IMG/VR virus record: IMGVR_UViG_3300026484_000284
Span: 1-64,000 of that record
Direction: 5' to 3' (one strand)
From: a virus
Taxonomy: Duplodnaviria > Heunggongvirae > Uroviricota > Caudoviricetes
Length of the DNA: 64,000 nt
Below, in pieces: positions 8,808-64,000 of the stretch (within the stretch, counting starts at the first letter, position 1; each line of letters starts with the position of its first letter). The position numbers and the translations under genes are program-made. Below the pieces are notes generated by a model. The model did not search any database. It worked only from the letters and a program-made list of their open reading frames with translations, and was not told where the DNA came from.

Positions 8808-8812
8808 AGTAT

Positions 8813-10684: not shown

Positions 10685-10720
10685 TCTTAAATTTATTAAA
10701 ATATAGTTCTTAATTTTTTA

Positions 10721-10796: not shown

Positions 10797-10814
10797 ATTT
10801 TTTAATAACTTTTA

Positions 10815-10890: not shown

Positions 10891-10893
10891 TTA

Positions 10894-25025: not shown

Positions 25026-25069
25026 TTTTGATTCCTTTTTGTTATATTTGAATTGTTATTTCTTTTTAC

Positions 25070-25112
25070 ATTATAATTATAACAAAAAAAATTTTAATTG
25101 TCAAGTAAAAAA
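25070..25112 (-). promoter_or_regulatory. consensus promoter (TTGACA-N17-TATAAT)
   Basis: Plus strand reads TTATAATTATAACAAAAAAAATTTTAATTGTCAAGT. Confidence 0.5.
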
Positions 25113-25135
25113 CAAAAATTTTTAAAGAAATGAAA

Positions 25136-38027: not shown

Positions 38028-38042
38028 GTGCCATCCTTTATT

Positions 38043-38780: not shown

Positions 38781-38805
38781 TTTAATTCCTTGTTATTTTA
38801 TTACA

Positions 38806-38840
38806 ATATAATTATAACTAAAAAGAAAATAAAAGTCAAG
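38806..38840 (-). promoter_or_regulatory. consensus sigma70-type promoter
   Basis: Plus strand reads ATATAATTATAACTAAAAAGAAAATAAAAGTCAAG. Confidence 0.45.
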
Positions 38841-38857
38841 GAAATATCCCGACTTTT

Positions 38858-41210: not shown

Positions 41211-42215
41211 TTAATTGTTTAAATTTAAAATTCCAAATCTTTTTAATAAGAATTCATTTATTCCATTTTCTTTTAATTGAATGGCATCAATGTTTCTTTC
41301 CATCTCATTACATACACATATTAAATTACCACTACCAGCAAAACAATCTAAAACATTATCATTTTTGTTAGTTGTTTGTTCTACTAAAAATTTTAGTAAT
41401 TTTACAGGTTTTGGGTTCATAAAATTAAACTCAATTCCTTTTTCTTTTAACTCTTTTTTTAACCTTTCTTTCTCTTCTTTTGTTAAAAATGTTCCTAAAA
41501 AAGTAGTTAATTGTTTATTATTTTTATATGTACCAATATATTCTTTTCTTCCAATATATTTACCAGTTGAAAATAATAAACCTTCTTCTTTCCATTTTTC
41601 AATTTTTTCTTTTGTGTAAGGAGTTTCAAATTTATGAATTTTATCTTCTAACTCAATTTCAACCTCCTTAAACCCTTGATTGAATCTTTGAAGATATTGA
41701 ACTTTATAATATCCTCCTTCATCTTTTTTAAAAGTCGATAAATCTCTTTCTTTTCCTTTGTACTTGAATTTATTTTTATCTTTTCCATAAACTAAAATAT
41801 ATTCGTGATTATTAACTACAAGATTTTTTGTAGGAATGCCTTGTGCTGATTCCTTTGTTACCCAAACGAATTCATTTATAAAATTTTTTTCATCGAATAT
41901 ATCTTCAGCAACACATTTTAAATGATGAAACATTTTATAATTTATCGCCATTAAAATAACACCATCTTCTTGTAATAAATCCTTTGTCAATTTTAATCTT
42001 TCAATTATAAATTGTTTCCATTCATTTTTATTCATACAATCTTTGTAGGATTGCCTACTGCATGTGTTATATGGTGGGTCAAAAAATATCATTTTGTATT
42101 TTTTATTTTCCCGTTTTAACTTTTCCATAACATTCAAATTGTCATCAATATATAACATTTTAATTGCCTTTTCGTTATTTTTTATAATTATAACAAAAAA
42201 CATTTCAAAAGTCAA
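41211..42215 (-). CDS. DNA methyltransferase (beta-class N6-adenine/N4-cytosine, DPPY motif)
   Basis: Motif IV IFFDPPYN near the N-terminus. Motif I VLDCFAGSGN near the C-terminus (beta-class order). Confidence 0.6.
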   Translation of the reverse strand: MTFEMFFVIIIKNNEKAIKMLYIDDNLNVMEKLKRENKKYKMIFFDPPYNTCSRQSYKDCMNKNEWKQFIIERLKLTKDLLQEDGVILMAINYKMFHHLKCVAEDIFDEKNFINEFVWVTKESAQGIPTKNLVVNNHEYILVYGKDKNKFKYKGKERDLSTFKKDEGGYYKVQYLQRFNQGFKEVEIELEDKIHKFETPYTKEKIEKWKEEGLLFSTGKYIGRKEYIGTYKNNKQLTTFLGTFLTKEEKERLKKELKEKGIEFNFMNPKPVKLLKFLVEQTTNKNDNVLDCFAGSGNLICVCNEMERNIDAIQLKENGINEFLLKRFGILNLNN

Positions 42216-42912: not shown

Positions 42913-43548
42913 ATGATATTAAAATATAATTTTGAAGAATCTAATAACATAAAAAGATTAAAAAAAGATTTTACACTTGATGTAGAAGAATTAACATTTG
43001 AAAAACATAACATAAATATACCTGACAATTTTCATATAGGAGTAATTTTTGGAAATTCTGGAAGTGGTAAAAGTTTATTAGGTAGAGATTTAATTAAACA
43101 AGGTCATAATTTTATTGAAAATATAGACATCAAAAATAAAAATGAACCTGTAATAAATTTAGGAGAGTATAATGAAATTGTTAATAGATTTCAAGCAGTT
43201 GGGTTTAACACCATCCCACAATGGATATTACCTTTTAATAAGTTGAGCAATGGACAAAAGTATAGAGTAGCAGTCGCATTTAATTTAAACGATTATACAA
43301 TTTTTGATGAATTTACTTCCTTTATAGACAGAAATACTGCCATAAGTTTATCCGTGTCTTTATCAAAATATATCAGAAAAAATAATCTTAAAAATATAAT
43401 TTTGATAACACCACACCACGATATAATAGATTATTTAGAACCTGATTGGGTATATAATACTAATGAAAGGGAATTTTATAAGAATGAATTATTTTTTAAT
43501 GAAGTTAAAAACCCAAAAGAAGGATTTTTAGAAGTTGAAGATAAGTAA
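42913..43548 (+). CDS. stand-alone ABC-type ATPase domain protein (211 aa); the only convincing plus-strand gene
   Basis: Walker A GNSGSGKS, signature LSNGQK, Walker B IFDEFTSFID, H-loop ITPHH. SD AAAGGAATAAAAATG. Confidence 0.55.
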   Translation: MILKYNFEESNNIKRLKKDFTLDVEELTFEKHNINIPDNFHIGVIFGNSGSGKSLLGRDLIKQGHNFIENIDIKNKNEPVINLGEYNEIVNRFQAVGFNTIPQWILPFNKLSNGQKYRVAVAFNLNDYTIFDEFTSFIDRNTAISLSVSLSKYIRKNNLKNIILITPHHDIIDYLEPDWVYNTNEREFYKNELFFNEVKNPKEGFLEVEDK

Positions 43549-46153: not shown

Positions 46154-46996
46154 TTATAATTGAATTAACTTTTCCATTTCTGTTCTTACTCTTTCGGCAT
46201 TTCCATTTTTCATCATAAAATCGAAATTTCTTCTTACTGCCTCAAGTGTTCCTTTAATGGGTATAAATCCTTTTTTGATGAATTTATAAACTCGCATAAT
46301 TCTTAAACTATCTTCAAAAATTCTGTCTTCGGGTCTACCAATAAATGAAAATTTATTTTCCAAGCAATGTTTAATCCCTTTTTGAGATGGGTCAAGTAAT
46401 TCAAATGTTTTTAAATTAAAGTATAGGGTATTTATAGTGAAATCTCTTCTTTGCCAATCGTCTTCAAGTGTTCCGAATTCAACTTCATCTGCACCCAAAC
46501 CCTTTTTCCCGTGGTAAATATCTTTTCTAAAAGTTGCTATTTCAAATGTTTCTTTTGCTTTAACCATAACCACACCAAAATGCTCACCGATTAAATCCGT
46601 TTCAACTTCGTCTTTTAAAATTTCTACAACTTGATTTGGAGTCAAGTCAGTAACTAAATCGATGTCTTTAATTGGTAATTCTGCTAAAACATCACGATTA
46701 AACCCACCTACAATAAACACATTTCCATTTTCTAGAAGTTTTTTAACCCATTTATTTTCTTCAATAAAATCTTGTGCTAAAAGTGTCATCAAGTTTAATC
46801 TCACTAAAAACAATTTTATATTGAAACTTATATTAAAACTTATATTAAAATTATTATGAGACTCAACTAATTTTAGTGGGTCTTTATCAAGTGTTTTTAA
46901 AAATTCATGCGAAAATAATTTTTCATTGTCGTTTGTAAATGGTACTCCATTTCTAAATTTTTCTTGTCTTAATTCATTCAAAAAAAAGTTTTTCAT
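46154..46996 (-). CDS. class II nucleotidyltransferase, CCA-adding/poly(A)-polymerase head domain (tRNA 3'-end repair candidate)
   Basis: VFIVGGFNRDVLAELPIKDIDLVTD matches GGxVRDxLLGxxxxDxDxxT. 280 aa, lacking the HD tail. Contains a 3x12-bp in-frame repeat (NFNISFNISFNI). Confidence 0.55.
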   Translation of the reverse strand: MKNFFLNELRQEKFRNGVPFTNDNEKLFSHEFLKTLDKDPLKLVESHNNFNISFNISFNIKLFLVRLNLMTLLAQDFIEENKWVKKLLENGNVFIVGGFNRDVLAELPIKDIDLVTDLTPNQVVEILKDEVETDLIGEHFGVVMVKAKETFEIATFRKDIYHGKKGLGADEVEFGTLEDDWQRRDFTINTLYFNLKTFELLDPSQKGIKHCLENKFSFIGRPEDRIFEDSLRIMRVYKFIKKGFIPIKGTLEAVRRNFDFMMKNGNAERVRTEMEKLIQL

Positions 46997-47246: not shown

Positions 47247-47250
47247 AATA

Positions 47251-47397
47251 TCAACCTTTGATTGTCCATAACTTACAATCTGGACAATGTGTTTCAATGA
47301 ATTCAACTGCTTCTTTGTAACCACCTTTTACTTTTACATAACTTACTTTGTTACTACCGATGATTTCAAGTGTCAATGTTTTGTTTGTATTTTTCAT
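47251..47397 (-). CDS. conserved 48-aa peptide with HCPDC motif (copy 1 of duplicated module)
   Basis: MKNTNKTLTLEIIGSNKVSYVKVKGGYKEAVEFIETHCPDCKLWTIKG. A 49-aa copy (differing at several residues) sits at 61130..61279 with the same CACATG start context. Confidence 0.35.
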   Translation of the reverse strand: MKNTNKTLTLEIIGSNKVSYVKVKGGYKEAVEFIETHCPDCKLWTIKG

Positions 47398-47441
47398 GTG
47401 ATACCTTTTTGTTTAATTTATTGTAACTTTTAACTTGTTAC

Positions 47442-47478
47442 ATTATAATTATAACAAAAAAATTTTTAATTGTCAAGT
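47442..47478 (-). promoter_or_regulatory. consensus promoter (TTGACA-N17-TATAAT), copy 1 of duplicated module
   Basis: Plus strand reads ATTATAATTATAACAAAAAAATTTTTAATTGTCAAGT. Confidence 0.5.
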
Positions 47479-47520
47479 GTTTTTTGAAAAAATTTCATAA
47501 AATTTTAAAAGTTTTTATAA

Positions 47521-47760
47521 AAAACCATAAACACCACCAAACCATCATTTATAACTATAATTGAAATTATAACCATAAACACCGTTAAACCGTCATTAAA
47601 ACCATATTTGAAACTATATTAACCATAATTTGAAAACCATAACTTAAAACATCATAAATTATATTTGAAACTATAACTGAAATCATAGTTAAAATTACAA
47701 CCATAGTTAAAACTATGATTATAATTGAAACCACGACTAAAAACATAATTGAAAAAATTT
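47521..47760. repeat. low-complexity iteron-like array (AACCATAAACACC, GAAACTATA, ATAGTTAAAA words)
   Basis: Noncoding 240 bp, CA-rich on plus strand. Immediately upstream of the consensus promoter. Confidence 0.4.
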
Positions 47761-51400: not shown

Positions 51401-52102
51401 TTATTTTTCATCATAAATCGAAGTATCGATAACATCTTCAACTTTTATTTCTTCACCTGTATGATAGAATTCCCATTCAACTCTTTCATTTTCAAGTAAT
51501 TCAAAATAAATAGCATTAAAATCATCTTTACAGCAATGGATATTGTTATGCGACAAACCACTACTAAAATCGTGATAAACTTTTATGTTACCATATTGAA
51601 TATGATTTTTGATAACTTCAAATATATTATAACTTGCTTTTGTGTCCCCACTAATTAAAATATCATCGTGATATAAATATAACCCATAACAATTAAAAGG
51701 CCCGTGATTTACTTCTATTTCTTTCATTGGTAATGGTAAATGCACTTCTTTAATTGTTTTAAACTCGACCATTTGAATAGGTTTATTCTCCCCATTCACA
51801 TACATTGAATTAAATTTATTTTTAAAAATTCTTTCCAATTCCTCAATAACTTTACTTCCAGATAAAATAGTCGTTTTAAGTTCCCTTACAAAATATCTAA
51901 AATAGATAAGTCTTTCAAGGTCTGAAATATGGTCTAAATGTGTATGACTAATAAAAATATAATCAATGTCTTCATCTTTAACTTTACTAAATATGCCGTG
52001 CCCACAATCAAATAATATAGTTTTTTCACCTTCAATTAAAAAAGCACTTGAAACTTCACTAAAAGCGCCACCATTTCCTAATTTTGTTACAATCGTTTTC
52101 AT
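51401..52102 (-). CDS. metallo-beta-lactamase-fold hydrolase
   Basis: FISHTHLDHI (HxHxDH). Downstream His/Asp ligands. Confidence 0.55.
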   Translation of the reverse strand: MKTIVTKLGNGGAFSEVSSAFLIEGEKTILFDCGHGIFSKVKDEDIDYIFISHTHLDHISDLERLIYFRYFVRELKTTILSGSKVIEELERIFKNKFNSMYVNGENKPIQMVEFKTIKEVHLPLPMKEIEVNHGPFNCYGLYLYHDDILISGDTKASYNIFEVIKNHIQYGNIKVYHDFSSGLSHNNIHCCKDDFNAIYFELLENERVEWEFYHTGEEIKVEDVIDTSIYDEK

Positions 52103-53045: not shown

Positions 53046-53082
53046 TATTATAATTATAACGAAAAAGAAATAAAAAGTCAAG
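53046..53082 (-). promoter_or_regulatory. consensus sigma70-type promoter
   Basis: Plus strand reads TATTATAATTATAACGAAAAAGAAATAAAAAGTCAAGT. Confidence 0.5.
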
Positions 53083-53105: not shown

Positions 53106-54065
53106 TTAAAATAAAGTTTTATTTTTCTTTTTTAAAATTGTATAATTATAATTTTTATGAGCATAAATTTTTTCTTGAACCATTTTTCTTCTTATATTAT
53201 TTTTACTCTTTTGATAAATTATTTCATAATCTTTATGCTCGAGATTGTATTCTGAGATAACACATTTATTTTTTGTGATAAATTCTTCAAAAAGACTAAA
53301 ATCAAACTCGGAATCATAACCACTTGTATTTTGATAAGGAGGGTCTAAATAAACGATTGAGTTGCTTTCAAAATTTTCAAAGTCAAGATAACTTTTATTA
53401 TGAAATTCTATCTTTTCATTTTTGATGAATGGTAAAGTCTTTGCCAATAAAATTATGTTATTTATATGAGCAACTAAATTTCTACCTGACGGCACATAAG
53501 GTTTCATTAGATTATTAAGTTTTAATTTTTTTACTTGAACTTCACCTATGTTTTTGGGTATTCCCATTTCTAGAATTTCTTCAATTTTTATATCTTTATT
53601 GTATAATTTTTTAAAACTTTTTTTAAATTCTTTTAAATGATTTTCATCATTATTGATGATGATATAGTGTAGATTTCTTTTGAGATTTTCAACTTCACGA
53701 CTATAAATATATCCACCACCCTCATTTCCAAAAGTGTAACATCTTTCAAAAAATACTATACCAACATTATCTTTAGGTTTTTCATTTCTACCATAAAAAG
53801 GTTTTACAAATTTAGTGAAGAATTCTTCTTCACTTATATTCTTTAAAAACATCACAAAATCAAATAAATTTTTATTCAACTCATTATAAATAACTTTTTT
53901 GATAATTGGATTTTGGGCAAGTGAGAATGAAACACTTCCACCACCACCAAATAAATCGTAAAGTATTATATCTTTTTGATGTATTTTTTCAAAAATTTCA
54001 TTCAACTCTTTAATAAGTTTTCTTTTACTTCCCTTATAAGGAATACCGACTGCTTTAATTTTCAT
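53106..54065 (-). CDS. Dam-like (D12-class) N6-adenine DNA methyltransferase, paralogue A
   Basis: N-terminal GIPYKGSKRKL...YDLFGGGGSVSF (AdoMet motif). YLDPPYQNTSGY (motif IV DPPY). About 55% identical by eye to 56978..57952. Confidence 0.65.
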   Translation of the reverse strand: MKIKAVGIPYKGSKRKLIKELNEIFEKIHQKDIILYDLFGGGGSVSFSLAQNPIIKKVIYNELNKNLFDFVMFLKNISEEEFFTKFVKPFYGRNEKPKDNVGIVFFERCYTFGNEGGGYIYSREVENLKRNLHYIIINNDENHLKEFKKSFKKLYNKDIKIEEILEMGIPKNIGEVQVKKLKLNNLMKPYVPSGRNLVAHINNIILLAKTLPFIKNEKIEFHNKSYLDFENFESNSIVYLDPPYQNTSGYDSEFDFSLFEEFITKNKCVISEYNLEHKDYEIIYQKSKNNIRRKMVQEKIYAHKNYNYTILKKKNKTLF

Positions 54066-54099: not shown

Positions 54100-54798
54100 T
54101 TATTTTTTTGGTGCAAGTCTTCTAAATTCACTTGCCATCTCATTATACTTAAATACCTTTTTAAAAGTTGCGACTATATCTTCCCATTCTTTATTATTTT
54201 CGTAAATCAATTTAACCATTTTATAATCATCTTTCAAGTGATATATAAATTTATCCATTTCAAAATCATCTTTATATTTTGCTAAAGCAATTCCAAACTT
54301 CAAAATCCTAATACAATGAAATAAAGATTTATAACTTTTTCTCAACTCAATTTCAGAATGGTATTTTGGATATTCGACAATATATTTCTTTTTTGCTTTT
54401 ACAAAACTATTATTATACTTTTTTGAAAATGATTTTCTTAATTTTGATAAATCAAGTTTAAAATATGATGGATTATAATTCATCAAACCACTTGAAAAAT
54501 AAAGTGCCATTGCCATTTCATCGTGTTCCCATAAAAGACCTTCAAATGTTCTATTACTTAAAAGAATTATATCTGTTTTAAAAGTATTTCCATTATAAAC
54601 ATTCTCAAAAGTATAGTTTTCAAATACATCTTTGGAACTATCTATTATAACTACAAAATCCAAATCTGAATGTCCATCCATTGTTTTCCATAACAATGAA
54701 CCCCATTCATAACATCCAACCATTTTATTATTGATATTATATTTTTCTAAAAAATTATGGAAATTCATTTTAACACCTTTATTGATTGTTTTCAACAT
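54100..54798 (-). CDS. nucleotidyltransferase-fold protein (232 aa)
   Basis: GCYEWGSLLWKTMDGHSDLDFVVI (GS...DxD Pol-beta-type NTase motif) plus a helical C-terminal domain. Confidence 0.45.
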   Translation of the reverse strand: MLKTINKGVKMNFHNFLEKYNINNKMVGCYEWGSLLWKTMDGHSDLDFVVIIDSSKDVFENYTFENVYNGNTFKTDIILLSNRTFEGLLWEHDEMAMALYFSSGLMNYNPSYFKLDLSKLRKSFSKKYNNSFVKAKKKYIVEYPKYHSEIELRKSYKSLFHCIRILKFGIALAKYKDDFEMDKFIYHLKDDYKMVKLIYENNKEWEDIVATFKKVFKYNEMASEFRRLAPKK

Positions 54799-55803
54799 TT
54801 AAGAATTACAAAATTCTTTTTTAAGTAATTCCATAAACATTTTTTCTAATTCATTCAAGTTGGCAGTTTTAGGTAAATCTTTTACTACATCTTGAAGTTT
54901 TTCGAAATTTGCAAACTCAACTTCCATTCTCTCTTCAAGTTCTTCAAGTGTAAATTCTAAATTTCTAACTCTTTTAAGTTCTTCGGCATTTTCAAGTGGG
55001 AAGTTTAATTTTTTATTTACGATTAAATCCCTTCCTTCTTCTAAAAGTCTAAATAAGTGCATAAAAAATTTGGCATCATATCCAACTTCTTTCCATTGTG
55101 CTGCTCTATGACTTGATGAAGCAATTTTTTCTTTCATCATTTTATTTGCTTTTTTGATGAATAAGTTTCTTGGAAACGATAAGTTGCTCACAACTACACC
55201 ATCTTTTTTGAATAAGTGTTTGAAAGGAGCAAACTCATTGTAATGCTGAACTTCACCTAATGTCATATTATTATCGTGAGTTTGTAAAAACTCTTCTAAT
55301 GTTTTTTGTAATGTAATTAAATCTTTGTAATTAACTGCTTTGTTTTTACCTTTTTTTAATTGACTTTTCGCATACCCCATAAACGAATGAAACACTCTTT
55401 GATTGATAAATAACTCACTATTATTTTGAAACATTTCAAACTCAGGTGTATTATAAACAACTGCTTCTGGGTTTGTGTGTGCGAAAAGTAATTCCACGAT
55501 GTTTGGGTTGTTCTCAGCGGCAAGTTTTAAGAATTTTTTCAATTCATACACTTTACAATCCAATGCTTCTTTTGTATTTTTACCACTCGCATCTTTTACT
55601 ACTTCTGATAAATCAACCTCATCAATGTTTTTAAATCCTAAATGATATTCTGGTCTTGCTAAAAATACACCTAAATAATCTGTATCTGATTCTGGTGTGT
55701 TAGTACCATATAATTGACTTCCACTTTTTGTTAAAAATAATAGTCTTCCGTAAGGACTTAATTTTTCATTAACCATTTCTAAAATTTCATTTCTTGTTTT
55801 CAT
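54799..55803 (-). CDS. nucleotidyltransferase-fold protein (334 aa)
   Basis: FLTKSGSQLYGTNTPESDTDYLGVF (GS-x-DxD) plus a long helical C-terminus. Stop/start directly abuts 54100..54798. Confidence 0.45.
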   Translation of the reverse strand: MKTRNEILEMVNEKLSPYGRLLFLTKSGSQLYGTNTPESDTDYLGVFLARPEYHLGFKNIDEVDLSEVVKDASGKNTKEALDCKVYELKKFLKLAAENNPNIVELLFAHTNPEAVVYNTPEFEMFQNNSELFINQRVFHSFMGYAKSQLKKGKNKAVNYKDLITLQKTLEEFLQTHDNNMTLGEVQHYNEFAPFKHLFKKDGVVVSNLSFPRNLFIKKANKMMKEKIASSSHRAAQWKEVGYDAKFFMHLFRLLEEGRDLIVNKKLNFPLENAEELKRVRNLEFTLEELEERMEVEFANFEKLQDVVKDLPKTANLNELEKMFMELLKKEFCNS

Positions 55804-55830
55804 GTGATATTCCTTTTTGTTTCTTTTTAC

Positions 55831-55866
55831 ATTATAATTATAACAATTTTTTAATTAAAAGTCAAG
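55831..55866 (-). promoter_or_regulatory. consensus-type promoter
   Basis: Plus strand reads ATTATAATTATAACAATTTTTTAATTAAAAGTCAAGT. Confidence 0.45.
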
Positions 55867-55880
55867 TGTTTTTTTATTTT

Positions 55881-56135
55881 TTAATCGTTTAAAAGATTTA
55901 AAAATTTATCTAAATCTCTATCATCAACCATATATGATTTGATATTCCAACTATAACAATCTTCGTCAAATGCTAATACTCTTCCGAATTCATCTTTTTC
56001 AATTTCTACTTCTTTACCACAAAACTCTTCCATTTCTTGTGTAAATGCTTCTTCACCTTCAACACATATATCTCCATCGATATCTGTTCCGTAAATACTT
56101 TCCATCTCTTCCCAAGTTTTAATTCTTATTTTCAT
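55881..56135 (-). CDS. hypothetical acidic protein (84 aa)
   Basis: CACATG start context after the promoter at 56362..56398 region. A ~58-aa ORF (56158..56331) lies between. Confidence 0.3.
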   Translation of the reverse strand: MKIRIKTWEEMESIYGTDIDGDICVEGEEAFTQEMEEFCGKEVEIEKDEFGRVLAFDEDCYSWNIKSYMVDDRDLDKFLNLLND

Positions 56136-56361
56136 GTGATATTCCTTTTATATATAAAAAACTCTTCTAACTTCAACATATTCTTCTGAATCTTCTGTTC
56201 CATCATTTTCAACTTGAAAATTCATACATAATCTGTCTCCGTCAAATTCCTCTGTTTCTATTAAGTATTCTTTTTTTCCATCTTTTGTTATACATTCACA
56301 AGTTAAAACATTTGCTCTTATTTCCATTTTGTCTTCCTTTTGTTTGTTTTATTTCTTTTTA

Positions 56362-56398
56362 TATTATAATTATAACACATTTTGATTTAAAAGTCAAG
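56362..56398 (-). promoter_or_regulatory. consensus-type promoter
   Basis: Plus strand reads TATTATAATTATAACACATTTTGATTTAAAAGTCAAGT. Confidence 0.45.
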
Positions 56399-56400
56399 TG

Positions 56401-56600
56401 TTTTTAAATGTTTTTCAAAAATTTTTCAAAAGTTTTTATTTCATCATTATAAACAACACCATATAACAACCATTATAATTATAAATGATAACAACACTAT
56501 AAACCAACACTATAAACCAACACTATACTTTTATAATATCAACGATAACAATATGATAAACAGTGGTACTGTTTAAATCATAAATTATCATATAAATTTC
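56401..56600. repeat. low-complexity iteron-like array (ATAAACCAACACTATAAACCAACACT..., ATAACAAC words)
   Basis: Noncoding. Degenerate short direct repeats. Immediately upstream of a consensus promoter. Analogous arrays at 47521..47760 and 61401..61565. Confidence 0.4.
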
Positions 56601-56602
56601 AA

Positions 56603-56785
56603 CTATTGCTCTTTTTCTGGAAAAAACTTTTTTTTGAACTCATTTTCACTTCGGACAAACTTCAAGTTACCATCAGTATAAATAATGGCATCAATCCATT
56701 CGTCGTTTATTTGTATTTTACATTTATCTAGAATTGTATAAATTTTATTGTTACGATAGTGTTTATATTTCATACTTGAATGCAT
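56603..56785 (-). CDS. hypothetical protein (60 aa)
   Basis: Short ORF. Weak. Confidence 0.2.
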   Translation of the reverse strand: MHSSMKYKHYRNNKIYTILDKCKIQINDEWIDAIIYTDGNLKFVRSENEFKKKFFPEKEQ

Positions 56786-56793
56786 ACTTGCCC

Positions 56794-57012
56794 TTATGAA
56801 AATATAAAAGTGTCAATCGGAAATAATAAAAATGCTCCTATTACTTGAACGATTATCAAGTGAATATATTCTTGATATTTAGATGGGCAGCAATCATATT
56901 TCACGAGAAAATATAATGGTATCATCATAATAAAAGCACTAAAAATCCATCTTAAAAGATAAATGAAAAAAGTTACACTAAAATAATCCATTTGTCTCCC
57001 TTGATTTATCAT
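56794..57012 (-). CDS. small membrane protein (72 aa)
   Basis: Two TM helices. Confidence 0.25.
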   Translation of the reverse strand: MINQGRQMDYFSVTFFIYLLRWIFSAFIMMIPLYFLVKYDCCPSKYQEYIHLIIVQVIGAFLLFPIDTFIFS

Positions 57013-57952
57013 TTGTTTTTTCTATAAAATATCTATGAGCATAAATTTTTTCGGTAGCAACCCCACCAATGTTTCTTTTTAGTTTTTCAAAAATTACTTC
57101 ATAATCTTTATGCTCGAGATTATATTCAGAAACATAACATTTATGAGTTGATATAAATTCTTTAAATTTTTCAAAATCAAAATCTACATTATATCCACTT
57201 GTATTTTGATAAGGAGGGTCTAAATAAATGAAAGCATTTTCTTCAAAATTTTCAAAGTCAAGATAACTTTTATTATGAAATTCTATCTTTTCATTTTTGA
57301 TAAATGGTATAACATTATATAAAAGATTGATATTATTAGAGTGCTGTAACATACATCTTTTAGATGGTATATAAGGCTCCACAATTCCTTGTAATTTTAA
57401 TTTTCTAAGTTGAAATTCTTCCATATTTTTTGGAATACCCATTTCTAAAATATCATACATTTCTGGAATAACTTTTATTTCGTCTTGGAATTTATCAATA
57501 ATTTTTTTATCATTATCTCTAATTATTAAATGAAAATACTCTTTCATTTTTTCATTATGCTTTCCATAAATGTAACTTACTCCACCATTTCCAAAACTAT
57601 AACATTTTTCAAAAAAGATTCTTTCGTTTTTATCTTTGAACTCATAATCCCTTCTAAAGAAAGGTTTCATAAATCTTTCATAAAATTCTTCTTGACTTAT
57701 ATTCTTTAAAAACATTATAAAGTCAAATAAATCTTTATCTAATTCATTATAAATAACTTTTTTAACATTTGGGTGCTGAGCAAGTGAAAAAGAAACACTA
57801 CCACCACCACCGAATAGGTCATAAATGACAATATCATTACCGAATAAATCTATGTGATTTTCTAAGATTTTATTCAAGTGTGGTATAAGTTGTCTTTTAC
57901 TTCCTTTATATGGTACTCCTGCTGATTTAACTTTATAATTCAAATCTTTCAT
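56978..57952 (-). CDS. Dam-like (D12-class) N6-adenine DNA methyltransferase, paralogue B
   Basis: GVPYKGSKRQL...YDLFGGGGSVSF...YLDPPYQNTSGY. Shares long identical blocks with 53106..54065. Confidence 0.65.
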   Translation of the reverse strand: MKDLNYKVKSAGVPYKGSKRQLIPHLNKILENHIDLFGNDIVIYDLFGGGGSVSFSLAQHPNVKKVIYNELDKDLFDFIMFLKNISQEEFYERFMKPFFRRDYEFKDKNERIFFEKCYSFGNGGVSYIYGKHNEKMKEYFHLIIRDNDKKIIDKFQDEIKVIPEMYDILEMGIPKNMEEFQLRKLKLQGIVEPYIPSKRCMLQHSNNINLLYNVIPFIKNEKIEFHNKSYLDFENFEENAFIYLDPPYQNTSGYNVDFDFEKFKEFISTHKCYVSEYNLEHKDYEVIFEKLKRNIGGVATEKIYAHRYFIEKTNDKSRETNGLF

Positions 57953-58010
57953 TTTAATCCTTCATAACCATAGGGAAAATAATTTTTCCCCCTTTATAAA
58001 ATTATATTGT

Positions 58011-58574
58011 TTAAGATTTATTTAACACTTCTTCTAAAAAAGGTTTTAAATTTTCTATCAAATTAACTTCTGTCAATTCATATCCATTATCTTTTAAGTA
58101 GTTTCTAAATTTTAAAGTTTTACCAAATTTTATAGGTTTAACAACTTTACCCTCAATAACAAAATTTTCTTTAAAATAATCGTCTTTTGATAATGTTTTT
58201 AAATCAACATTTGAAAAAACCACTTCACTGAATGTATCGTGTTTTGATGTTTCTTGAAAAACGATTGGATATATTTTATACTTTTCTAATTTAACATTTA
58301 CTTTTTCTTTATCGTCTGTAACTTCATTATAAATAATAAAATCGACATCTTTTATTTGAGGTCCTTTTTTAGATTCAAATCTAACATCAAAAAGAATATC
58401 TGGAGATTTAGATGAACTAACAAAACCAATTTCTAAAAAATCATCTGCTAATAAACCATATCCTACTTTACCATTCAATTCGATTCTTACATTATCTTTA
58501 ACCTGATCCCAATCAAGGTTACCTCTTGTAATAGTTGATGCTTCCATCAGACTTTTTATAATTTCCTTTAACAT
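58011..58574 (-). CDS. hypothetical protein (187 aa)
   Basis: Tiling ORF. Confidence 0.3.
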   Translation of the reverse strand: MLKEIIKSLMEASTITRGNLDWDQVKDNVRIELNGKVGYGLLADDFLEIGFVSSSKSPDILFDVRFESKKGPQIKDVDFIIYNEVTDDKEKVNVKLEKYKIYPIVFQETSKHDTFSEVVFSNVDLKTLSKDDYFKENFVIEGKVVKPIKFGKTLKFRNYLKDNGYELTEVNLIENLKPFLEEVLNKS

Positions 58575-58631
58575 TCCAATTCCTTCTTTTATTTCTATTT
58601 AATGGCATAGAACAATTCATTTAAACCATTT

Positions 58632-59204
58632 TTAAATTTCATTCTCTTTTAATCCTATAATTTTAGCACAACCATCTTTATGTTTTTTAATATAATGTAA
58701 GTGTCCTACATCTACACTATATTTTGCATCAAATTGAAGTCCAAATTCTTCTACAAAGGCACCATAAGAAGTAGGATATAAATTTAATTTTGAATGCTTG
58801 TACTCTGGATTTTTTAGTTCATATTCAATCGTTTCATTGAATTCTGCTTCATTGAATTCATTATATTTTTTCCTATATTGTTTTAAAATCTTTTTACAAG
58901 TTTTTTGAGTTTCTTTATTTTGAACCACTCTTCTCCAAATTGGTAAAAAGTCCAAATAAACACCTGTCCTATAAAAATTCCCAACATAATCTTCTTCAAG
59001 CAATACCACTTTGTAAGTGTTAAAAAAGTGTGGGTCATTTGCTTTTATGCTTACTACAACTGCTGGAATAAAATTGTCATTCAATTCAATTACCATAATT
59101 TGCCCTATTTTAATGTTATCGATCCCATATTTTTCTTTATAACTATATGTTTCTAAATCTTTTTCCATTTTTAATCCTTTATTTTTTTGTTTTATTTTTT
59201 CCAT
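58632..59204 (-). CDS. hypothetical protein (190 aa)
   Basis: Tiling ORF. Confidence 0.3.
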   Translation of the reverse strand: MEKIKQKNKGLKMEKDLETYSYKEKYGIDNIKIGQIMVIELNDNFIPAVVVSIKANDPHFFNTYKVVLLEEDYVGNFYRTGVYLDFLPIWRRVVQNKETQKTCKKILKQYRKKYNEFNEAEFNETIEYELKNPEYKHSKLNLYPTSYGAFVEEFGLQFDAKYSVDVGHLHYIKKHKDGCAKIIGLKENEI

Positions 59205-59391
59205 TCACTTTATAAGAAAACAATTTAACTCCATTATCATAAATTGTAATTTTATCGTTTTTGTATAAATAATATGTTTTTATTTTATCATCCACCACAT
59301 CAACTTGATTATATTCTTCGTCTGTTATAATTTTGGGCGCTTCTATAAATGTAATAGTTTTGTCTTTATAGGATTTAATTTTTATAATCAT
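59179..59391 (-). CDS. hypothetical protein (70 aa)
   Basis: Tiling ORF. Confidence 0.25.
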   Translation of the reverse strand: MIIKIKSYKDKTITFIEAPKIITDEEYNQVDVVDDKIKTYYLYKNDKITIYDNGVKLFSYKVNGKNKTKK

Positions 59392-59426
59392 TTTTTCTCC
59401 TTTTGATTATTTATTATACTAAATTT

Positions 59427-59813
59427 TTAAGTTTTAATTAACTTATCTTTTTGTCTAAAATTACACAACTTGACAAACTCATCCCAAAATTCTTTTCTCT
59501 TGTCTGTAAAAAACACCATACCTGCTATATTTGATAATGGTACAATAAACATTCCATTTTTTGAAAAACTTAAAGAAGCAATATCATCAAAAGATATATC
59601 CATATTAACATTATGGAAATAATTTTTTACAAAAATATCAAATTCATCTTCTATTTGTCGTTGAATGGTTCTTGTGTTTATCTCATATGAATATCTATCT
59701 AGAATATATTCATCAAACTTCTTTTTAACATTTTTGAACTCATCTAAACTTGAAATTTTTTCCCTATTGAACCATTTTTTATTTGTGCCCAGTTCAATAC
59801 TTATTATTCTCAT
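59427..59813 (-). CDS. hypothetical protein (128 aa)
   Basis: Tiling ORF. Confidence 0.3.
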   Translation of the reverse strand: MRIISIELGTNKKWFNREKISSLDEFKNVKKKFDEYILDRYSYEINTRTIQRQIEDEFDIFVKNYFHNVNMDISFDDIASLSFSKNGMFIVPLSNIAGMVFFTDKRKEFWDEFVKLCNFRQKDKLIKT

Positions 59814-60094
59814 TTTATTCCTTTAAAATTTTTAATACTTATATAGATTGAAGATAATATAAAAAATATAGGTAACATTATTAAAAACATTACTACGATA
59901 AACATTATCATTAAAATGGATAAAACAATGATGGGGATTGACAAAAAAATAATTTGTATAAACATTGTTATATATTGTTTCCATTTTTTTAATTTCAAAA
60001 CTATTTTTCCATTTTTTTCACTCATAAGACACACTAATAACAATGAAAATGAAATATATAAATAAAGTAATAAATAAATTAATAAATAATTCAT
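59810..60094 (-). CDS. small membrane protein (94 aa)
   Basis: Three hydrophobic helices. Confidence 0.3.
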   Translation of the reverse strand: MNYLLIYLLLYLYISFSLLLVCLMSEKNGKIVLKLKKWKQYITMFIQIIFLSIPIIVLSILMIMFIVVMFLIMLPIFFILSSIYISIKNFKGIK

Positions 60095-60109
60095 AAAGTC
60101 CCCTTTAAT

Positions 60110-60667
60110 TTAACAATAACCATCACCTTCAATAATCACACGATATTCAAAATTATTGTTTAAACAAATTTTGATAATCTTTGATAATTCAAATGTAATA
60201 TCTCTATAAGTTCTATTATCTGCTTCATAATATATTTCTTTCCAGAATTCCGGTGTTTTGAAAACTATATACCCATTTTCAAGTAATTTATCTTCTTTAC
60301 TTAACAATTCTAATTGCTTTTTATCGACTTTATATTCGGATAAGGCATAAACTTCCACATTATAATACTTGCTATCATCTCCTGTATAAAACTCGCAAAA
60401 TGCTTCATCATAAAACTCTTCTTTGAATTGTTCTAATGGCATATTTTCGTACTCATCTTTCCAAGTTACTGTCGTGTCGATTATACCTTCATCATCTGTA
60501 ATTAAAAAATCCTTCTTCAACTCTCTAAAAAGATTAAAAGTTTTTTCTCTTGAAAATCCTTTACCACTTAAAACTAATTTTTTTTCTTTACATAAAACAC
60601 CATTATCATCTTTTATTGCTTTAACTTTTACACATACATTTGTTTTATAATTCGCACAACTTCCCAT
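60110..60667 (-). CDS. hypothetical Cys-terminal protein (185 aa), paralogue of 40267..40857
   Basis: See 40267..40857. Confidence 0.35.
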   Translation of the reverse strand: MGSCANYKTNVCVKVKAIKDDNGVLCKEKKLVLSGKGFSREKTFNLFRELKKDFLITDDEGIIDTTVTWKDEYENMPLEQFKEEFYDEAFCEFYTGDDSKYYNVEVYALSEYKVDKKQLELLSKEDKLLENGYIVFKTPEFWKEIYYEADNRTYRDITFELSKIIKICLNNNFEYRVIIEGDGYC

Positions 60668-60693
60668 ATTTACTCCTTCTTACTTCTTACTTT

Positions 60694-61116
60694 TTACTCT
60701 TCTTCACTTGTCTTTGATAAGTAAAAATCATAATTTTCATAGGCATTTCCAATCACCTTATAATATCTTGCTGAACCCTCATCTAGACCTATCACAAAAT
60801 TTCTATTTATTGGTCGTTTAAGTTTTATCAAACCGAAACTCGCTGTTGGTTTATGATATACGACTTCAAAATAAGATGGTGCCCCTTCAAAATCATTACG
60901 ACTTGTAGGTATCGACTTTTCAATCAAGTCCCCTTCAAAAATTTCATTACCATCTTTGTCTGTTATACCTGTGAAAAGACATCTTTTTCGTAATTTCAAA
61001 TGGTCGTTTTCAAGACTTGAAACACCAGATTCTATATCTAGAATATCCAATATATTAGTTGTGATTTTTTTATTACTTATATTCTCATAATAATATTTGA
61101 TTTTAATTTTTTTCAT
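60694..61116 (-). CDS. hypothetical protein (141 aa; start trimmed to the GGAG-preceded MKKIKIKYYYE)
   Basis: The ORF-track N-terminus (MVIKKQLNSLKH...) is the out-of-frame shadow of the conserved 49-aa ORF. Confidence 0.3.
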   Translation of the reverse strand: MKKIKIKYYYENISNKKITTNILDILDIESGVSSLENDHLKLRKRCLFTGITDKDGNEIFEGDLIEKSIPTSRNDFEGAPSYFEVVYHKPTASFGLIKLKRPINRNFVIGLDEGSARYYKVIGNAYENYDFYLSKTSEEE

Positions 61117-61129
61117 TGTTTCTCCTTTA

Positions 61130-61279
61130 TCAACCTTTGATTGTCCATAACTTACAATCTGGACAATGTGTTTCAATGAATTCAACTGCTTCTTTATAAC
61201 CACCTTTTACTTTTACATAACTGATTTTATTGCTACCAATGATTTCAAGTGTCAATGTTTTTGTATTTCTATTTCTCAT
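61130..61279 (-). CDS. conserved 49-aa peptide with HCPDC motif (copy 2)
   Basis: MRNRNTKTLTLEIIGSNKISYVKVKGGYKEAVEFIETHCPDCKLWTIKG. Same CACATG context. Confidence 0.35.
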   Translation of the reverse strand: MRNRNTKTLTLEIIGSNKISYVKVKGGYKEAVEFIETHCPDCKLWTIKG

Positions 61280-61322
61280 GTGATTCCTTTTTGTTTAGTT
61301 TATCGTAACTTTTAACTTGTTA

Positions 61323-61360
61323 CATTATAATTATAACAAAAAAATTTTTAATTGTCAAGT
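61323..61360 (-). promoter_or_regulatory. consensus promoter (TTGACA-N17-TATAAT), copy 2 of duplicated module
   Basis: Plus strand reads ATTATAATTATAACAAAAAAATTTTTAATTGTCAAGT, identical to the copy at 47442..47478. Confidence 0.5.
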
Positions 61361-61400
61361 GTTTTTTGAAAAAATTTAATAAAATTTTAAAAGTTTTTTA

Positions 61401-61565
61401 TGAAAAATTGAAACCATTTTATCAAACCGTGATTGAACCATTACTGAACTACTACTGAACGATTATTAAAAACATATTGAAAATATCATTATTGAAACCA
61501 ACTATAATTATAATTGAAACCAAAACCACAACCGAAAAAAATTCAATTATGATTTAACTTTTAAA
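61401..61565. repeat. low-complexity iteron-like array (TGAAACCA, ACTGAAC words)
   Basis: Noncoding. Same position relative to the duplicated promoter module. Confidence 0.4.
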
Positions 61566-61570
61566 ATGGT

Positions 61571-61861
61571 TCAATTTTTTATTACACATTTACATAATGG
61601 AAATAAATAATGTTTATAACCATCAGTATAATAAATATATTTTTTATCAATTTTTGAATTGGATTTATTCACTTCAATATAATAATTTTTTTCATAACAT
61701 TTAAAAGTTTTACCACTATTAAAATCGGTCATAACTTTTTTACTTGAATTTGAAAAAATAATAATAAACATCATAACTATTACAAGTATCGCACCAATTA
61801 TAAGTGGTGTATTTTCATTCCATTCAAAAAAGTTTCTTCTTTTTAAAAAGTCGTATTTCAT
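61571..61861 (-). CDS. small membrane-anchored protein (96 aa)
   Basis: One TM helix. Confidence 0.3.
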   Translation of the reverse strand: MKYDFLKRRNFFEWNENTPLIIGAILVIVMMFIIIFSNSSKKVMTDFNSGKTFKCYEKNYYIEVNKSNSKIDKKYIYYTDGYKHYLFPLCKCVIKN

Positions 61862-61862
61862 C

Positions 61863-62114
61863 TTATTTCCTTTCTAATTTTTTGTTTATATCATTTAAAA
61901 GTTGATTTTGTTTTTTCAAAACTTCTGTTCTTATTTTTTCAACTTGAATATCTGATTTAATTTTTAATTTTTTAGTTTCATAGTTGAGGTAAGCACTAAA
62001 AAATAAGTAAGTGAATAACATTGCTATAAAAGCATAACCAGTATAACATTCCATAATTTTTCCTTTATAAATTTTATCTATATTTCCAGAATTTTTGTAG
62101 AATCGAAGTAACAA
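61863..62114 (-). CDS. small membrane-anchored protein (83 aa)
   Basis: One TM helix plus a coiled tail. Confidence 0.3.
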   Translation of the reverse strand: MLLRFYKNSGNIDKIYKGKIMECYTGYAFIAMLFTYLFFSAYLNYETKKLKIKSDIQVEKIRTEVLKKQNQLLNDINKKLERK

Positions 62115-62484
62115 TTTTACTTTGATTGTTTGATATTCTAGGTAAGTTACTCACATTAAACCATTTTAATCCATAAATTTCTCTATTTGGGAAGAATGAA
62201 TAGTCAATATCTTTACCATTGAAACTAACAAAAAACAATCCAATATCTTTTTTCTTATTCTTCTGTAAAATAAAGTCCTCTAATTCATTTTTATTTAACT
62301 TGATATTTACTTCTTCTTCAACTTCACGAACGACACATTCTTTAATCGTTTCGTTCTCTTCAATTTTACCTTTAATAAAATCATAAGACTTCGCTTGTTT
62401 ATGTGTCTTCGTTAAAAGTATTTTCACTTCATTTTTCTTAAAATCTATTTTATAAGGTATAATACCATAACTTTTTTCTTTCAA
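62074..62484 (-). CDS. Nudix hydrolase (136 aa)
   Basis: GKIEENETIKECVVREVEEEVNI matches the Nudix box (GxxxxxE-x7-REVxEExG). Confidence 0.5.
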   Translation of the reverse strand: MKEKSYGIIPYKIDFKKNEVKILLTKTHKQAKSYDFIKGKIEENETIKECVVREVEEEVNIKLNKNELEDFILQKNKKKDIGLFFVSFNGKDIDYSFFPNREIYGLKWFNVSNLPRISNNQSKIVTSILQKFWKYR

Positions 62485-63365
62485 CTATATTCTTTTTCGT
62501 TAGTATATTTATCAAATAGTTCAGGTTTAAAATCTTCAAGTAATTCATTCCAACTCGTAATTCTACTTCTTTTAACTAAACCATTTTCTGTTTCTTTTTC
62601 TGTTTCTTTTTCTGTTTCTTTTTCTGTTTCTTTTTCTGTTTCTTTTTCTGTTTCTTTTTCTGTTTCTTTTTTTATTTCTTTCATATAAAGTTCTTTCTTA
62701 CAAAATGTACCATACTTGAACCACTTTGGACTTTCCCCAAAACTTTTATTGTATTTTTCGTAAGTCAATGTTACTTGCTCATTGGCAGTTTTCCCTTGCA
62801 ACTCTTTATGACTACAATATGCCTGGGCAAAACCTGTTTTCGCATTTCTAAATACATCGTGATTTCTCCATTTGAAATTCTCAAACACTTCTTCAAGTGT
62901 TTCGACACCAAACACTCTAGCATCAAAAAATGCTTGCCCTTCTTTGTTTAATCTCGTTTTAATACAACCGAAGTCATCACAATTACTTTGACAATCAAGT
63001 CTTTCTTCTTTCCAAAAATTGTCAAATTCAAGTGTGGCATATGACGATAAAAGACTTGCCATTTTTTGAACTCTACCACCGAATGGATGAGTTTGTTTTT
63101 CATTACATTTTGGAAAATAAAGAGTGATTTCATCCGAACCTGTAAAACCCAAATTGGCATTGAATTTTTTAACAAGACTTATCATAGTTTTTTTCATAAC
63201 TCTTGCTAAAAACAAATCATAAGGTTTAGTAAGTCCTTTCGTGAATTTACTAAACTTATGTCCATCAAGTCTAACCATAAGGTGCAAGTCATTTGGTACA
63301 TTTACTTCATATTGTTTTTCTACTTGTTTGAATTCATTGTTTTTATCTAGAATATTCTTATTCAT
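62481..63365 (-). CDS. Thg1-like 3'-5' nucleotidyltransferase (tRNA-His guanylyltransferase family) with C-terminal (ETEK)7 repeat tail
   Basis: VRLDGHKFSKFT (compare Thg1 RxDGxxFxxFT). GFTGSDEITLYF (compare YGQSDEYSF, catalytic acidic residues). 84-bp tandem 12-mer at the 3' end. Confidence 0.6.
   Translation of the reverse strand: MNKNILDKNNEFKQVEKQYEVNVPNDLHLMVRLDGHKFSKFTKGLTKPYDLFLARVMKKTMISLVKKFNANLGFTGSDEITLYFPKCNEKQTHPFGGRVQKMASLLSSYATLEFDNFWKEERLDCQSNCDDFGCIKTRLNKEGQAFFDARVFGVETLEEVFENFKWRNHDVFRNAKTGFAQAYCSHKELQGKTANEQVTLTYEKYNKSFGESPKWFKYGTFCKKELYMKEIKKETEKETEKETEKETEKETEKETEKETENGLVKRSRITSWNELLEDFKPELFDKYTNEKEYS
62586..62669. repeat. tandem 12-bp repeat (TTCTGTTTCTTT)x7 encoding (ETEK)7 inside the Thg1-like gene
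   Basis: Direct reading of 62581..62680. Confidence 0.8.
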
Positions 63366-63394
63366 TTCAGTTCCTTCATATGTTTTTGAATTAT

Positions 63395-63805
63395 TTATTT
63401 TTCAATAATACAAATATATCCATCTATATCATCTATACTAAATCTATAATAAGTTTTGTCACCTTCTAAATTAAAATCGCTTTTGATATCTATTTTAAAA
63501 TCTTCATTGTTTAATTCTTTTAACACTTGATTAAAAATATATCCTGCACCTTCTATTGAAATTTCGTCAATGATATTGTTATGTTCAAGGAATTTTTGCT
63601 CATCAACTATCGCATCTACCATCGCATTCATTAACTCAATATCTACAAGCACTTCAATGTCTTTGATGTTTATTGAATAGAAACATTGGAATCTATTAAG
63701 TTGATTCCACTCAATTTTTCCGAATGAAATGTCTTCAATATCACTTAAATTTATACAAACTTTGTGAAATGATTTTATAATGTTTTCAATAATTTTTAAT
63801 TTCAT
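63395..63805 (-). CDS. hypothetical protein (136 aa)
   Basis: Tiling ORF. Confidence 0.3.
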   Translation of the reverse strand: MKLKIIENIIKSFHKVCINLSDIEDISFGKIEWNQLNRFQCFYSINIKDIEVLVDIELMNAMVDAIVDEQKFLEHNNIIDEISIEGAGYIFNQVLKELNNEDFKIDIKSDFNLEGDKTYYRFSIDDIDGYICIIEK

Positions 63806-64000
63806 TTTTTCCCTTTAATATTCTTTAAACTTTTTAATCGATTAAAAGATTTTTGTTAATAACATCATAGACATTGTAACCATATTAAACATATAAGTTT
63901 CGTTACAAAACAGTGTATATGTATATTGTTTATAAAGTCTTTCAACTTCACTTTTACCTATTCTCAAATTGCCTTCTTTACTATATTGTTCTTTTGATAA

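Follow-up and report, generated by a model that had tools for sequence, protein, structure and literature searches.

The 64,000-nucleotide (nt) stretch of a caudoviricete genome analyzed here (positions 1 to 64,000 of the IMG/VR record IMGVR_UViG_3300026484_000284; hereafter, the window) encodes on its minus strand, at 62481-63365, a Thg1-like protein (TLP) that contains a 12-bp tandem repeat. The open reading frame (ORF) starts with ATG and specifies 294 amino acids (aa) followed by a stop codon, as listed in the initial annotation, which had been made from the sequence alone and had assigned the product to the Thg1 family. Profile searches, comparison with solved structures and modeling all agree on this assignment. 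The Pfam Thg1 profile (PF04446) matches residues 11-152 of the protein with 91.3 bits (curated cutoff, 29.2; E=6e-26), PHROG 4717 ('tRNA-His guanylyltransferase') matches at E=5e-49, and the best sequence match in the PDB is the TLP of Bacillus thuringiensis (BtTLP; 4kgk, E=1.6e-20), with weaker matches to yeast Thg1 (E=2.8e-6) and the TLP of Methanosarcina acetivorans (MaTLP; 5axk, E=1.8e-5). With a profile built from 81 homologs, the respective E-values become 4.5e-66, 1.6e-27 and 8.9e-24. The AlphaFold model of the protein (mean predicted local distance difference test score (pLDDT), 82.9) retrieved with Foldseek 32 Thg1/TLP chains from the PDB at E<=1e-3, led by BtTLP (4kgm; E=2.7e-15, TM-score 0.82, root-mean-square deviation 1.9 Å), and the second-best class, nucleotide cyclases, was ten orders of magnitude weaker (E ~1e-2). 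Matches to the Pfam families Thg1C (E=0.26), NESP55, PARP and Auts2 were set aside as being below threshold, the latter three being driven by the low-complexity repeat. By these comparisons, the product, encoded by an uncultured large phage, is an ordinary, intact member of the Thg1-like family of templated 3'-5' nucleotidyltransferases, the "backwards" polymerases of tRNA repair.

Both motifs named in the initial annotation, RLDGxxFSKFT and GxxGSDEIT, are in place, within VRLDGHKFSKFTKG (residues 31-44) and GFTGSDEITLYF (residues 73-84), respectively. Alignment to 5axk and 4kgk identifies D34 of the RLDG motif (R32-G35; 63261-63272, minus strand) as the first metal-binding carboxylate and D78 and E79 of the SDE motif (S77, D78, E79; 63129-63137, minus strand) as the second and third catalytic carboxylates. 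These residues align with D29, D76 and E77 of HsThg1, and D34 and D78 correspond to D21 and D69 of MaTLP; in HsThg1 and MaTLP, the carboxylates bind two catalytic metals (residue identities from PMC6471195). Because D34, D78 and E79 all align and are conserved in 180-186 of the 187 sequences of the family alignment (D34 in 180; S77, D78 and E79 in 186 each), the assignment, which had been made contingent on the presence of the carboxylates, stands.

In contrast, the HINNLYN motif, through which eukaryotic Thg1 recognizes the GUG (His) anticodon (PMC6471195), is absent: WRNHDVFRNAKTGF (HDVFRNAKT) faces WRYVDTHINNLYNTTF (THINNLYNT) of yeast Thg1. Because of this absence and because BtTLP ranks top among the solved relatives, the protein is classified as TLP-type rather than as a dedicated tRNA-His G-1 enzyme, and it appears to be a bacterial-type TLP, closer to bacterial and archaeal TLPs than to eukaryotic Thg1, the profile giving E=4.5e-66 for BtTLP against 5e-29 for the eukaryotic enzyme. 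BtTLP (4KGK/4KGM) shares with it the RxDG and SDE motifs and the lack of HINNLYN, but is only ~27% identical and is a cellular rather than a phage protein. Eukaryotic Thg1 (3OTB, 3WBZ, 5XOX) shares the palm fold, the carboxylates and a hairpin with a conserved Arg, but possesses HINNLYN and catalyzes tRNA-His-specific, non-templated G-1 addition, an activity that is not expected for the phage protein. The main job of the protein might nevertheless be the addition of G-1 to tRNA-His, of the phage or of the host, rather than general 5'-end repair, given that databases annotate such genes as tRNA-His guanylyltransferase and that TLPs can add G-1 opposite C73 (PMC4820378, PMC3061083). Apart from the missing HINNLYN, however, there is no tRNA-His among the five tRNAs that ARAGORN detects in the window, most bacteria encode G-1 genomically, and both BtTLP and MaTLP prefer 5'-truncated tRNAs, in the case of BtTLP, by 5-160 fold (PMC3061083). 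Hence G-1 addition is an improbable main role, and repair of truncated 5' ends is the activity we favor.

The repeat array and its origin

The tandem array occupies 62586-62681 (minus strand) and encodes KEIK(KETE)7, residues 229-260 of the TLP. Tandem Repeats Finder (TRF) places a 12-bp array at 62584-62681 (8.2 copies, 97% matches, score 182), and the codons read ATG [AAA GAA ATA AAA] [AAA GAA ACA GAA]x7 AAT GGT, that is, seven nucleotide-identical AAAGAAACAGAA units at 62586-62669 and one degenerate first unit at 62670-62681 that differs from them by two substitutions. Across the 64 kb, TRF detected no second array with more than 3 copies; the other three arrays consist of 2.2-2.8 copies of different units. 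Seven exact units were also counted in the initial annotation, but its description of the array as a C-terminal tail built of ETEK units has to be corrected. The array is internal (residues 229-260 of 294) and is followed by 34 residues (NGLVKRSRITSWNELLEDFKPELFDKYTNEKEYS; beginning with NGLVKRSRITSW and ending with EYS) that are conserved in all close relatives and include the near-invariant R266, and the natural unit is KETE, grown from a single ancestral KETE. Of the two explanations offered for the array, slippage expansion and a charged linker, the former is borne out, whereas the latter fails, together with the notion of a tail, because the repeat is inserted at the tip of a beta-hairpin. 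Two further interpretations were considered: a DNA-level element (iterons or binding sites), rejected because the array is in frame within a conserved ORF and its unit is coding and present singly in relatives; and an E/K-rich single alpha-helix, not supported because the unit contains Thr and allows only i+3 pairing, and the model predicts a coil at pLDDT <50.

Relatives of the protein were drawn from a collection of 5.8 billion proteins. The five closest distinct ones, 266-271 aa long and 63-84% identical to the window protein over the full length, each contain a single unit (ELYMK-ET[ENKA][NS]G), and the DNA of their contigs reads ATG AAA GAA ACA GAA AAT GGT or close variants, with AAT or AGT following the unit. 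A scan of IMG/VR and JGI metagenome contigs with the 27-mer flanking the array detected no other copy-number alleles, just the single-copy relatives. Going by the tblastn matches, which end at query residue 221-228, just before the array, GenBank phage homologs appear not to share the repeat either, no direct inspection of their hairpins having been made. The comparison of copy number suggested in the initial annotation thus sets one unit in each of five relatives against the expanded array here, and because the close relatives hold a single unit, the array is a private feature of the present lineage, amplified from a single 12-bp unit that already existed. Such a pattern is the signature of replication slippage, by which one ancestral AAAGAAACAGAA (KETE) unit was apparently multiplied in recent times.

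Short tandem repeats are prone to mis-assembly, and the array could, in principle, be an assembly or sequencing artefact. The 96-bp array is, however, shorter than typical paired reads, and a separately assembled contig (L001; ENA ERZ27262648 k141_188652), which overlaps the window over 54464-64000 (9.5 kb) with 99.86% identity, 13 mismatches and no gaps, encodes an identical 294-aa protein with an equal repeat copy number. Because L001, with its 13 single-nucleotide polymorphisms (SNPs) elsewhere, has exactly the same array, the chance of an artefact is practically negligible, and the array can be regarded as a genuine feature of the gene.

A 12-bp coding repeat, (FNKE)x3-4, was also found just upstream of the TLP gene on the contig of the closest relative (L014, 1601-1924), so that, in these phages, A-rich 12-bp slippage is not confined to the TLP gene.

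The hairpin tip

DSSP applied to the AlphaFold model delineates a beta-hairpin at residues 220-272 (62550-62708, minus strand), in which strands 220-230 and 263-272 flank the repeat loop; residues 234-258 of this loop have pLDDT <50. A second model, of P0001, the nearest relative without the repeat (92% identity if the gap is disregarded), has strands 220-231 and 234-244 joined by a turn of 2 residues located at the KETx-N site, and the entire block has pLDDT >=94. Because of this tight hairpin in P0001, the ancestral KETE can be seen to close the first strand and form the turn. According to the models, the expansion extends the tip, a surface site, by 28 net-acidic residues (charge about -6) that are predicted to be disordered.

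The crystal structure of MaTLP with tRNA shows this element engaged with the substrate: the partner subunit binds the elbow of the tRNA through its hairpin (R198-R215), in which R215, conserved without exception, touches the U55 and G57 phosphates (PMC4820378). Homotetramers (dimers of dimers) that bind tRNA across subunits are characteristic of the superfamily; the models made here are of the monomer. Deletion of the tip (G202-E210) leaves 13.5% activity, and it has been proposed that the hairpin gauges the length of the acceptor stem, thereby ending extension (PMC4820378). The sole near-invariant residue in the second hairpin strand of the phage protein is R266 (codon at 62568-62570, minus strand), which is invariant in the alignment of close relatives, is an Arg in 176 of the 187 family sequences, and is matched in the profile alignment to the hairpin Arg of the human and Candida enzymes. 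Alignments of the hairpin to 5axk that started from the single sequence, the C-terminal fragment or the first profile stopped short, and a larger profile reached chain residue 231; the profile position of R266 (~235) maps to approximately residue 214-215 of 5axk. We infer, with good support, that R266 is the equivalent of MaTLP R215. Compared with the phage protein, MaTLP (5AXK-5AXN) has the same fold (Foldseek E ~1e-11) and a flexible hairpin with the conserved Arg, but its hairpin consists of 18 residues, whereas the phage protein carries the 28-residue acidic insertion at the tip. The tip of BtTLP (EFYEK---NG), the best match in both sequence and fold, is 3 residues shorter than that in the phage lineage and contains no repeat.

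The length of the hairpin is highly variable in the family. The distance separating the positions of the invariant G219 and R266 could be measured in 177 homologs that possess both: it has a median of 24 residues and extremes of 14 and 76, and the window protein, with 46, is the third longest. The longest hairpin, with 76 residues, belongs to P0147 (JGI 3300050207; 345-1526 of the short contig L017), an unrelated homolog rich in Asn/Ser low-complexity sequence in which an (SDTTSST)n repeat has arisen independently at this very tip, and the tip of Candida Thg1 is likewise acidic (ENYETEDEAE). Because the hairpin tip recurrently takes insertions across the family, tolerance is favored over design. 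Most likely, the repeat was not designed as a linker but is neutral or slightly harmful; given the MaTLP deletion data, it might still have an effect on how substrates are measured.

Such an effect is central to the possibility that the expansion is adaptive, with a longer and more acidic ruler hairpin altering the acceptance of tRNAs or of truncation depths, or sparing intact tRNAs. The insertion is located at the tip of the very element that gauges the acceptor stem and touches the elbow in MaTLP, the 12-bp unit preserves the reading frame, and the same allele is found in two variants 13 SNPs apart. The independent repeat at the tip of P0147 would fit this possibility too, but P0147 is a low-complexity protein throughout, which suggests permissiveness rather than selection, and the wide variation of length at this site across the family is apparently unconstrained. 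Furthermore, all five closest relatives do without the repeat, the model provides no confident structure for it, and an acidic composition is unfavorable near RNA phosphates. We therefore regard an adaptive expansion as unlikely. Damage to the enzyme was considered as well: the insertion is large and acidic, deletions in the MaTLP tip lower activity (PMC4820378), and the gene might accordingly encode a crippled enzyme and be heading for loss. This appears very improbable, given that the ORF is intact and in frame, all invariant family positions are kept, identity to a repeat-free relative amounts to 92% outside the repeat, and the allele persists in a second variant. We thus favor a tolerated, neutral or slightly harmful insertion. 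Together with the repeat-free relatives that are 92% identical elsewhere, the protein with the tip insertion is a natural experiment that provides a test of the ruler model for the stopping of 3'-5' extension.

Repair-type neighbors and the probable role of the protein

Phage TLPs have been annotated and discussed for more than a decade. Thg1 of phage 201phi2-1, operonic with a polynucleotide kinase, was described by Anantharaman et al. in 2010 (PMC2904730), with a possible anti-defense role, and the RNA-repair complement of jumbo phages presented by Iyer et al. in 2021 (PMC7824862) includes tRNAs, RNA ligases, kinases, phosphoesterases, RlaP, a CCA-adding enzyme and Thg1. A counter-defense RNA-repair set with a phage Thg1 is thus already published. 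The statement in the initial annotation that such genes are rare in phages is exaggerated: homologs are present in 162 of 50,697 GenBank phage records, most of them annotated as tRNA-His guanylyltransferase, and there is a dedicated PHROGs family; the Thg1 family as a whole comprises 6,719 cluster representatives at E<=1e-3. The known phage TLPs (PHROG 4717; for example, those of Pseudomonas phage 201phi2-1, Cronobacter phage GAP32 (gp147), Vibrio phage D69 and Bacillus Bastille-like phages) belong to the same family as the window protein, at 35-38% identity, and their recurrent neighbors are a CCA enzyme, an RlaP-type nucleotidyltransferase, an RNA ligase and a polynucleotide kinase. The association is thus seen in phages unrelated to this one: in Vibrio phage D69, a 12-kb stretch encodes a tRNA nucleotidyltransferase, a nucleotidyltransferase, the TLP, an RNA ligase, a polynucleotide kinase and a phosphoesterase, and in GAP32, the TLP gene lies 3 kb from that of a PF10127 protein.

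The same kind of RNA-repair set with Thg1 as in PMC7824862 is recognizable in the window, by homology. The RNA ligase, the CCA-type nucleotidyltransferase and the tRNA genes mentioned in the initial annotation were all located, on the minus strand. A T4 Rnl2-type RNA ligase is encoded at 9058-10038 (Pfam RNA_ligase and T4_Rnl2_C; TIGR02307, E=5e-52), and a 280-aa nucleotidyltransferase of the class II CCA-adding/poly(A) polymerase type at 46154-46996 (PolyA_pol, E=2.8e-24; PHROG 2244 'tRNA nucleotidyltransferase', E=5.6e-33). The latter matches the NCBIfam CCA model over positions 6-205 of 396, under the cutoff; it consists of the head domain only, the body and tail that cellular CCA enzymes possess being absent, and its homology does not distinguish CCA addition from poly(A) synthesis. 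An RlaP-family nucleotidyltransferase of the Pol-beta fold is encoded at 54799-55803 on the minus strand (PF10127, E=2.3e-23; PHROG 388, E=1e-53); RlaP is found near the TLP gene also in the related contigs L003 and L004, in phage GAP32 and, probably, in Vibrio phage D69. Adjoining the Rnl2 gene, a haloacid dehalogenase (HAD)-type phosphatase with a DIDET motif is encoded at 8174-8752 (minus strand; PHROG 415 'polynucleotide kinase', E=1.7e-6; weak HAD_SAK_1 match), a possible, weakly supported candidate for an RNA 3'-end healing enzyme. Outside the window, approximately 8 kb upstream of the TLP gene, L001 (582-1565) encodes a P-loop protein that resembles polynucleotide kinase. Within this set, the kinase and the phosphatase are the two weak assignments. 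The initial annotation also counted 'phosphatases' among the repair enzymes, which holds for the HAD phosphatase, whereas most of the others (MazG-like, Ham1 and Nudix proteins) are nucleotide pyrophosphatases rather than established RNA end-healing enzymes; likewise, repair-type genes are present, but calling them a complete toolkit rests on inference from homology.

A metallo-beta-lactamase-fold protein encoded at 51401-52102 (minus strand) has counterparts in L002 (633-1325) and L003 (2158-2853) that carry the anti-Pycsar Apyc1 domain (PF23023). Probably, it is a cyclic-nucleotide-degrading anti-defense enzyme rather than an RNA phosphatase.

The five tRNA genes (Ser-UGA, Glu-UUC, Ile-GAU, Gln-UUG and Asn-GUU) are clustered at 10595-11341 on the minus strand. 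The tRNA-Asn gene (11268-11341, minus strand) has no encoded 3' CCA, whereas the other four genes encode it, so that at least one phage tRNA needs CCA-adding activity. The acceptor stems of all five tRNAs are fully paired, with a lone 5'-end wobble, G1·U72, in tRNA-Glu; editing by the TLP of mismatched 5' ends of the phage's own tRNAs, in the style of protist mitochondria, was rejected on these grounds for the five tRNAs.

Because the region, one of non-structural genes driven by sigma70 promoters, also encodes Rnl2, a CCA-type enzyme, RlaP, a HAD phosphatase, tRNAs and a kinase-like protein, restoration of tRNA 5' ends is the most likely role of the TLP. We estimate the probability at about 75% that the protein is a TLP with a tRNA 5'-end repair role and that its repeat is a recent slippage expansion, in all likelihood neutral or mildly deleterious. 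By analogy with BtTLP and MaTLP, the enzyme would activate the truncated 5' end of a tRNA with ATP or GTP, or use a 5'-triphosphate; the lost 5' nucleotides, one or more, would be re-added in the 3'-5' direction, templated by the 3' strand of the acceptor stem; and extension would end once the hairpin of the partner subunit no longer reaches the tRNA elbow. In the course of infection, as the genomic context and the literature suggest, the enzyme would be used for restoring tRNAs damaged by host nucleases.

Several points weigh against this interpretation. No biochemically characterized phage TLP was found in the literature searched, and the activity here is predicted; the counter-nuclease role, too, is a proposal, made for an uncultured phage. 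The correspondence of R266 and R215 rests on profile arithmetic and conservation rather than on residue-level superposition. The size and charge of the insertion (28 residues, about -6) have to be accommodated at the tip, and because deletion of the MaTLP tip leaves so little activity, an insertion there might not be innocuous. Finally, the array is not brand new because its first unit has accumulated 2 substitutions and two variants separated by 13 SNPs have the allele in common; this age is compatible also with the array being maintained.

Overall, the gene and its context mainly confirm the existing annotation and published ideas, to which they add a divergent case in a large, uncultured phage of the T4-like kind, and the repeat insertion is the sole distinctive feature.

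Expression unit, Nudix neighbor and other features of the window

A highly conserved sigma70-type promoter motif, CTTGAC[T/A]-N17-TGTTATAAT (with an extended -10 element, also in the form TGTTATAATTATAAT), is present in 17 copies on the coding (minus) strand of the window, ahead of many gene blocks (for example, minus-strand copies at 61330-61358, 56369-56397, 53053-53081 and 8780-8808), in contrast to just 2 loose matches on the opposite strand. The copy nearest upstream of the TLP gene is located outside the window, at L001:8620, and the next one is at window position 61358. Because of these flanking promoters, the TLP gene is apparently the fourth of approximately seven small genes in one unit. 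The motif suggests transcription of this unit, and of the region as a whole, by the host polymerase, probably early, which would suit a role in counter-defense. Two 280-bp segments, 47249-47524 and 61128-61407, are 94-96% identical and contain one promoter each, together with flanking sequence; a third, weaker copy lies at 25007-25144.

Downstream of the TLP gene, a 136-aa Nudix hydrolase is encoded at 62074-62484 on the minus strand (Pfam NUDIX, E=4.3e-12), with a TTG start that overlaps the TGA stop of the TLP gene (AGTTGA). The two genes might form a two-step 5'-end module, possibly acting on RNAs other than tRNA, in which extension by the TLP would leave a 5'-triphosphate and a Dcp2/RppH-like Nudix enzyme would trim it to a monophosphate. 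The stop/start overlap is common to the window, L001 and L013, TLP products keep a 5'-triphosphate unless it is removed (PMC6471195), and the best PDB matches of the Nudix protein are the RNA-decapping domains of Dcp2 (E=4e-8), better than those of the MutT type. In the NCBIfam models, however, its scores are far below all cutoffs, and the MutT, NudC and RppH models match equally and do not discriminate; phage Nudix enzymes are more often linked to NAD or ADP-ribose (PMC7824862), and this phage has NAD salvage genes. The linkage itself is not conserved among relatives: the genes are separated by a 38-nt gap in L005, by an extra ORF in L014 and by 3 kb in L003 and L004, and there is no Nudix gene within 10 kb in L002, so that a conserved operon, with adjacency ranging from overlap to absence among six related contigs, is retained just as a lead of low probability. 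The Nudix protein may trim the TLP product, but the support for this is weak, and the two-step module as a whole is quite unlikely. A combination of both ideas, in which the repeat would be a slippage-tunable extension of the ruler and the coupled Dcp2/RppH-like Nudix enzyme the second component of an undescribed two-gene module for 5'-end repair, seems to us improbable as well; if it were true, phage lineages could shift the length and charge of the hairpin and, hence, which tRNAs are repaired or how far. We retain, instead, a TLP with a probable role in the repair of tRNA 5' ends and the repeat as a tolerated expansion.

The window has a GC content of 25%, with nearly all genes on the minus strand, and encodes T4-like replication proteins, namely, a family B polymerase, gp32, UvsW and a 5'-3' exonuclease; related contigs reach 198-223 kb. 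Close relatives in culture are lacking: a megablast search of 60000-64000 against GenBank phages returned no match, and the polymerase is <29% identical to that of any GenBank phage, those of Vibrio and Campylobacter T4-like phages being the best. The polymerase is contained in two minus-strand ORFs, 11599-12945 and 13875-15836, around a 194-aa ORF (12960-13544) of no assigned function, and an intein splicing domain (PF14890) stands at the beginning of the downstream part; the gene may be split or interrupted by an intein.

Several other genes were identified in the window, all on the minus strand unless noted otherwise. A 7-deazaguanine (preQ0-type) cluster at 600-6094, with a QueD-like PTPS, GTP cyclohydrolase I, QueC, a radical-SAM QueE-like protein and a phosphoribosyltransferase, suggests a modified guanine in the phage DNA. 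At 36846-40273, a NAMPT-type nicotinamide phosphoribosyltransferase gene adjoins that of an NMNAT-like protein with a cytidylyltransferase fold; by homology, the two make up a phage pathway for NAD+ salvage, and such pairs have been linked to the countering of defenses that deplete NAD. The S-adenosylmethionine lyase family protein (PF23780) encoded at 20661-21281 is likely anti-restriction. Two paralogous D12-class N6-adenine DNA methyltransferases are encoded at 53106-54065 and 56978-57952, with 75-79% nucleotide identity over parts of the genes, and a third methylase (N6_N4_Mtase) at 41211-42215. The only sizeable plus-strand gene of the window, 42913-43548, matches the C-terminal domain of HPr kinase below threshold, and this 211-aa gene, likewise in opposite orientation to its surroundings, is present also in the relatives L005 and L006.

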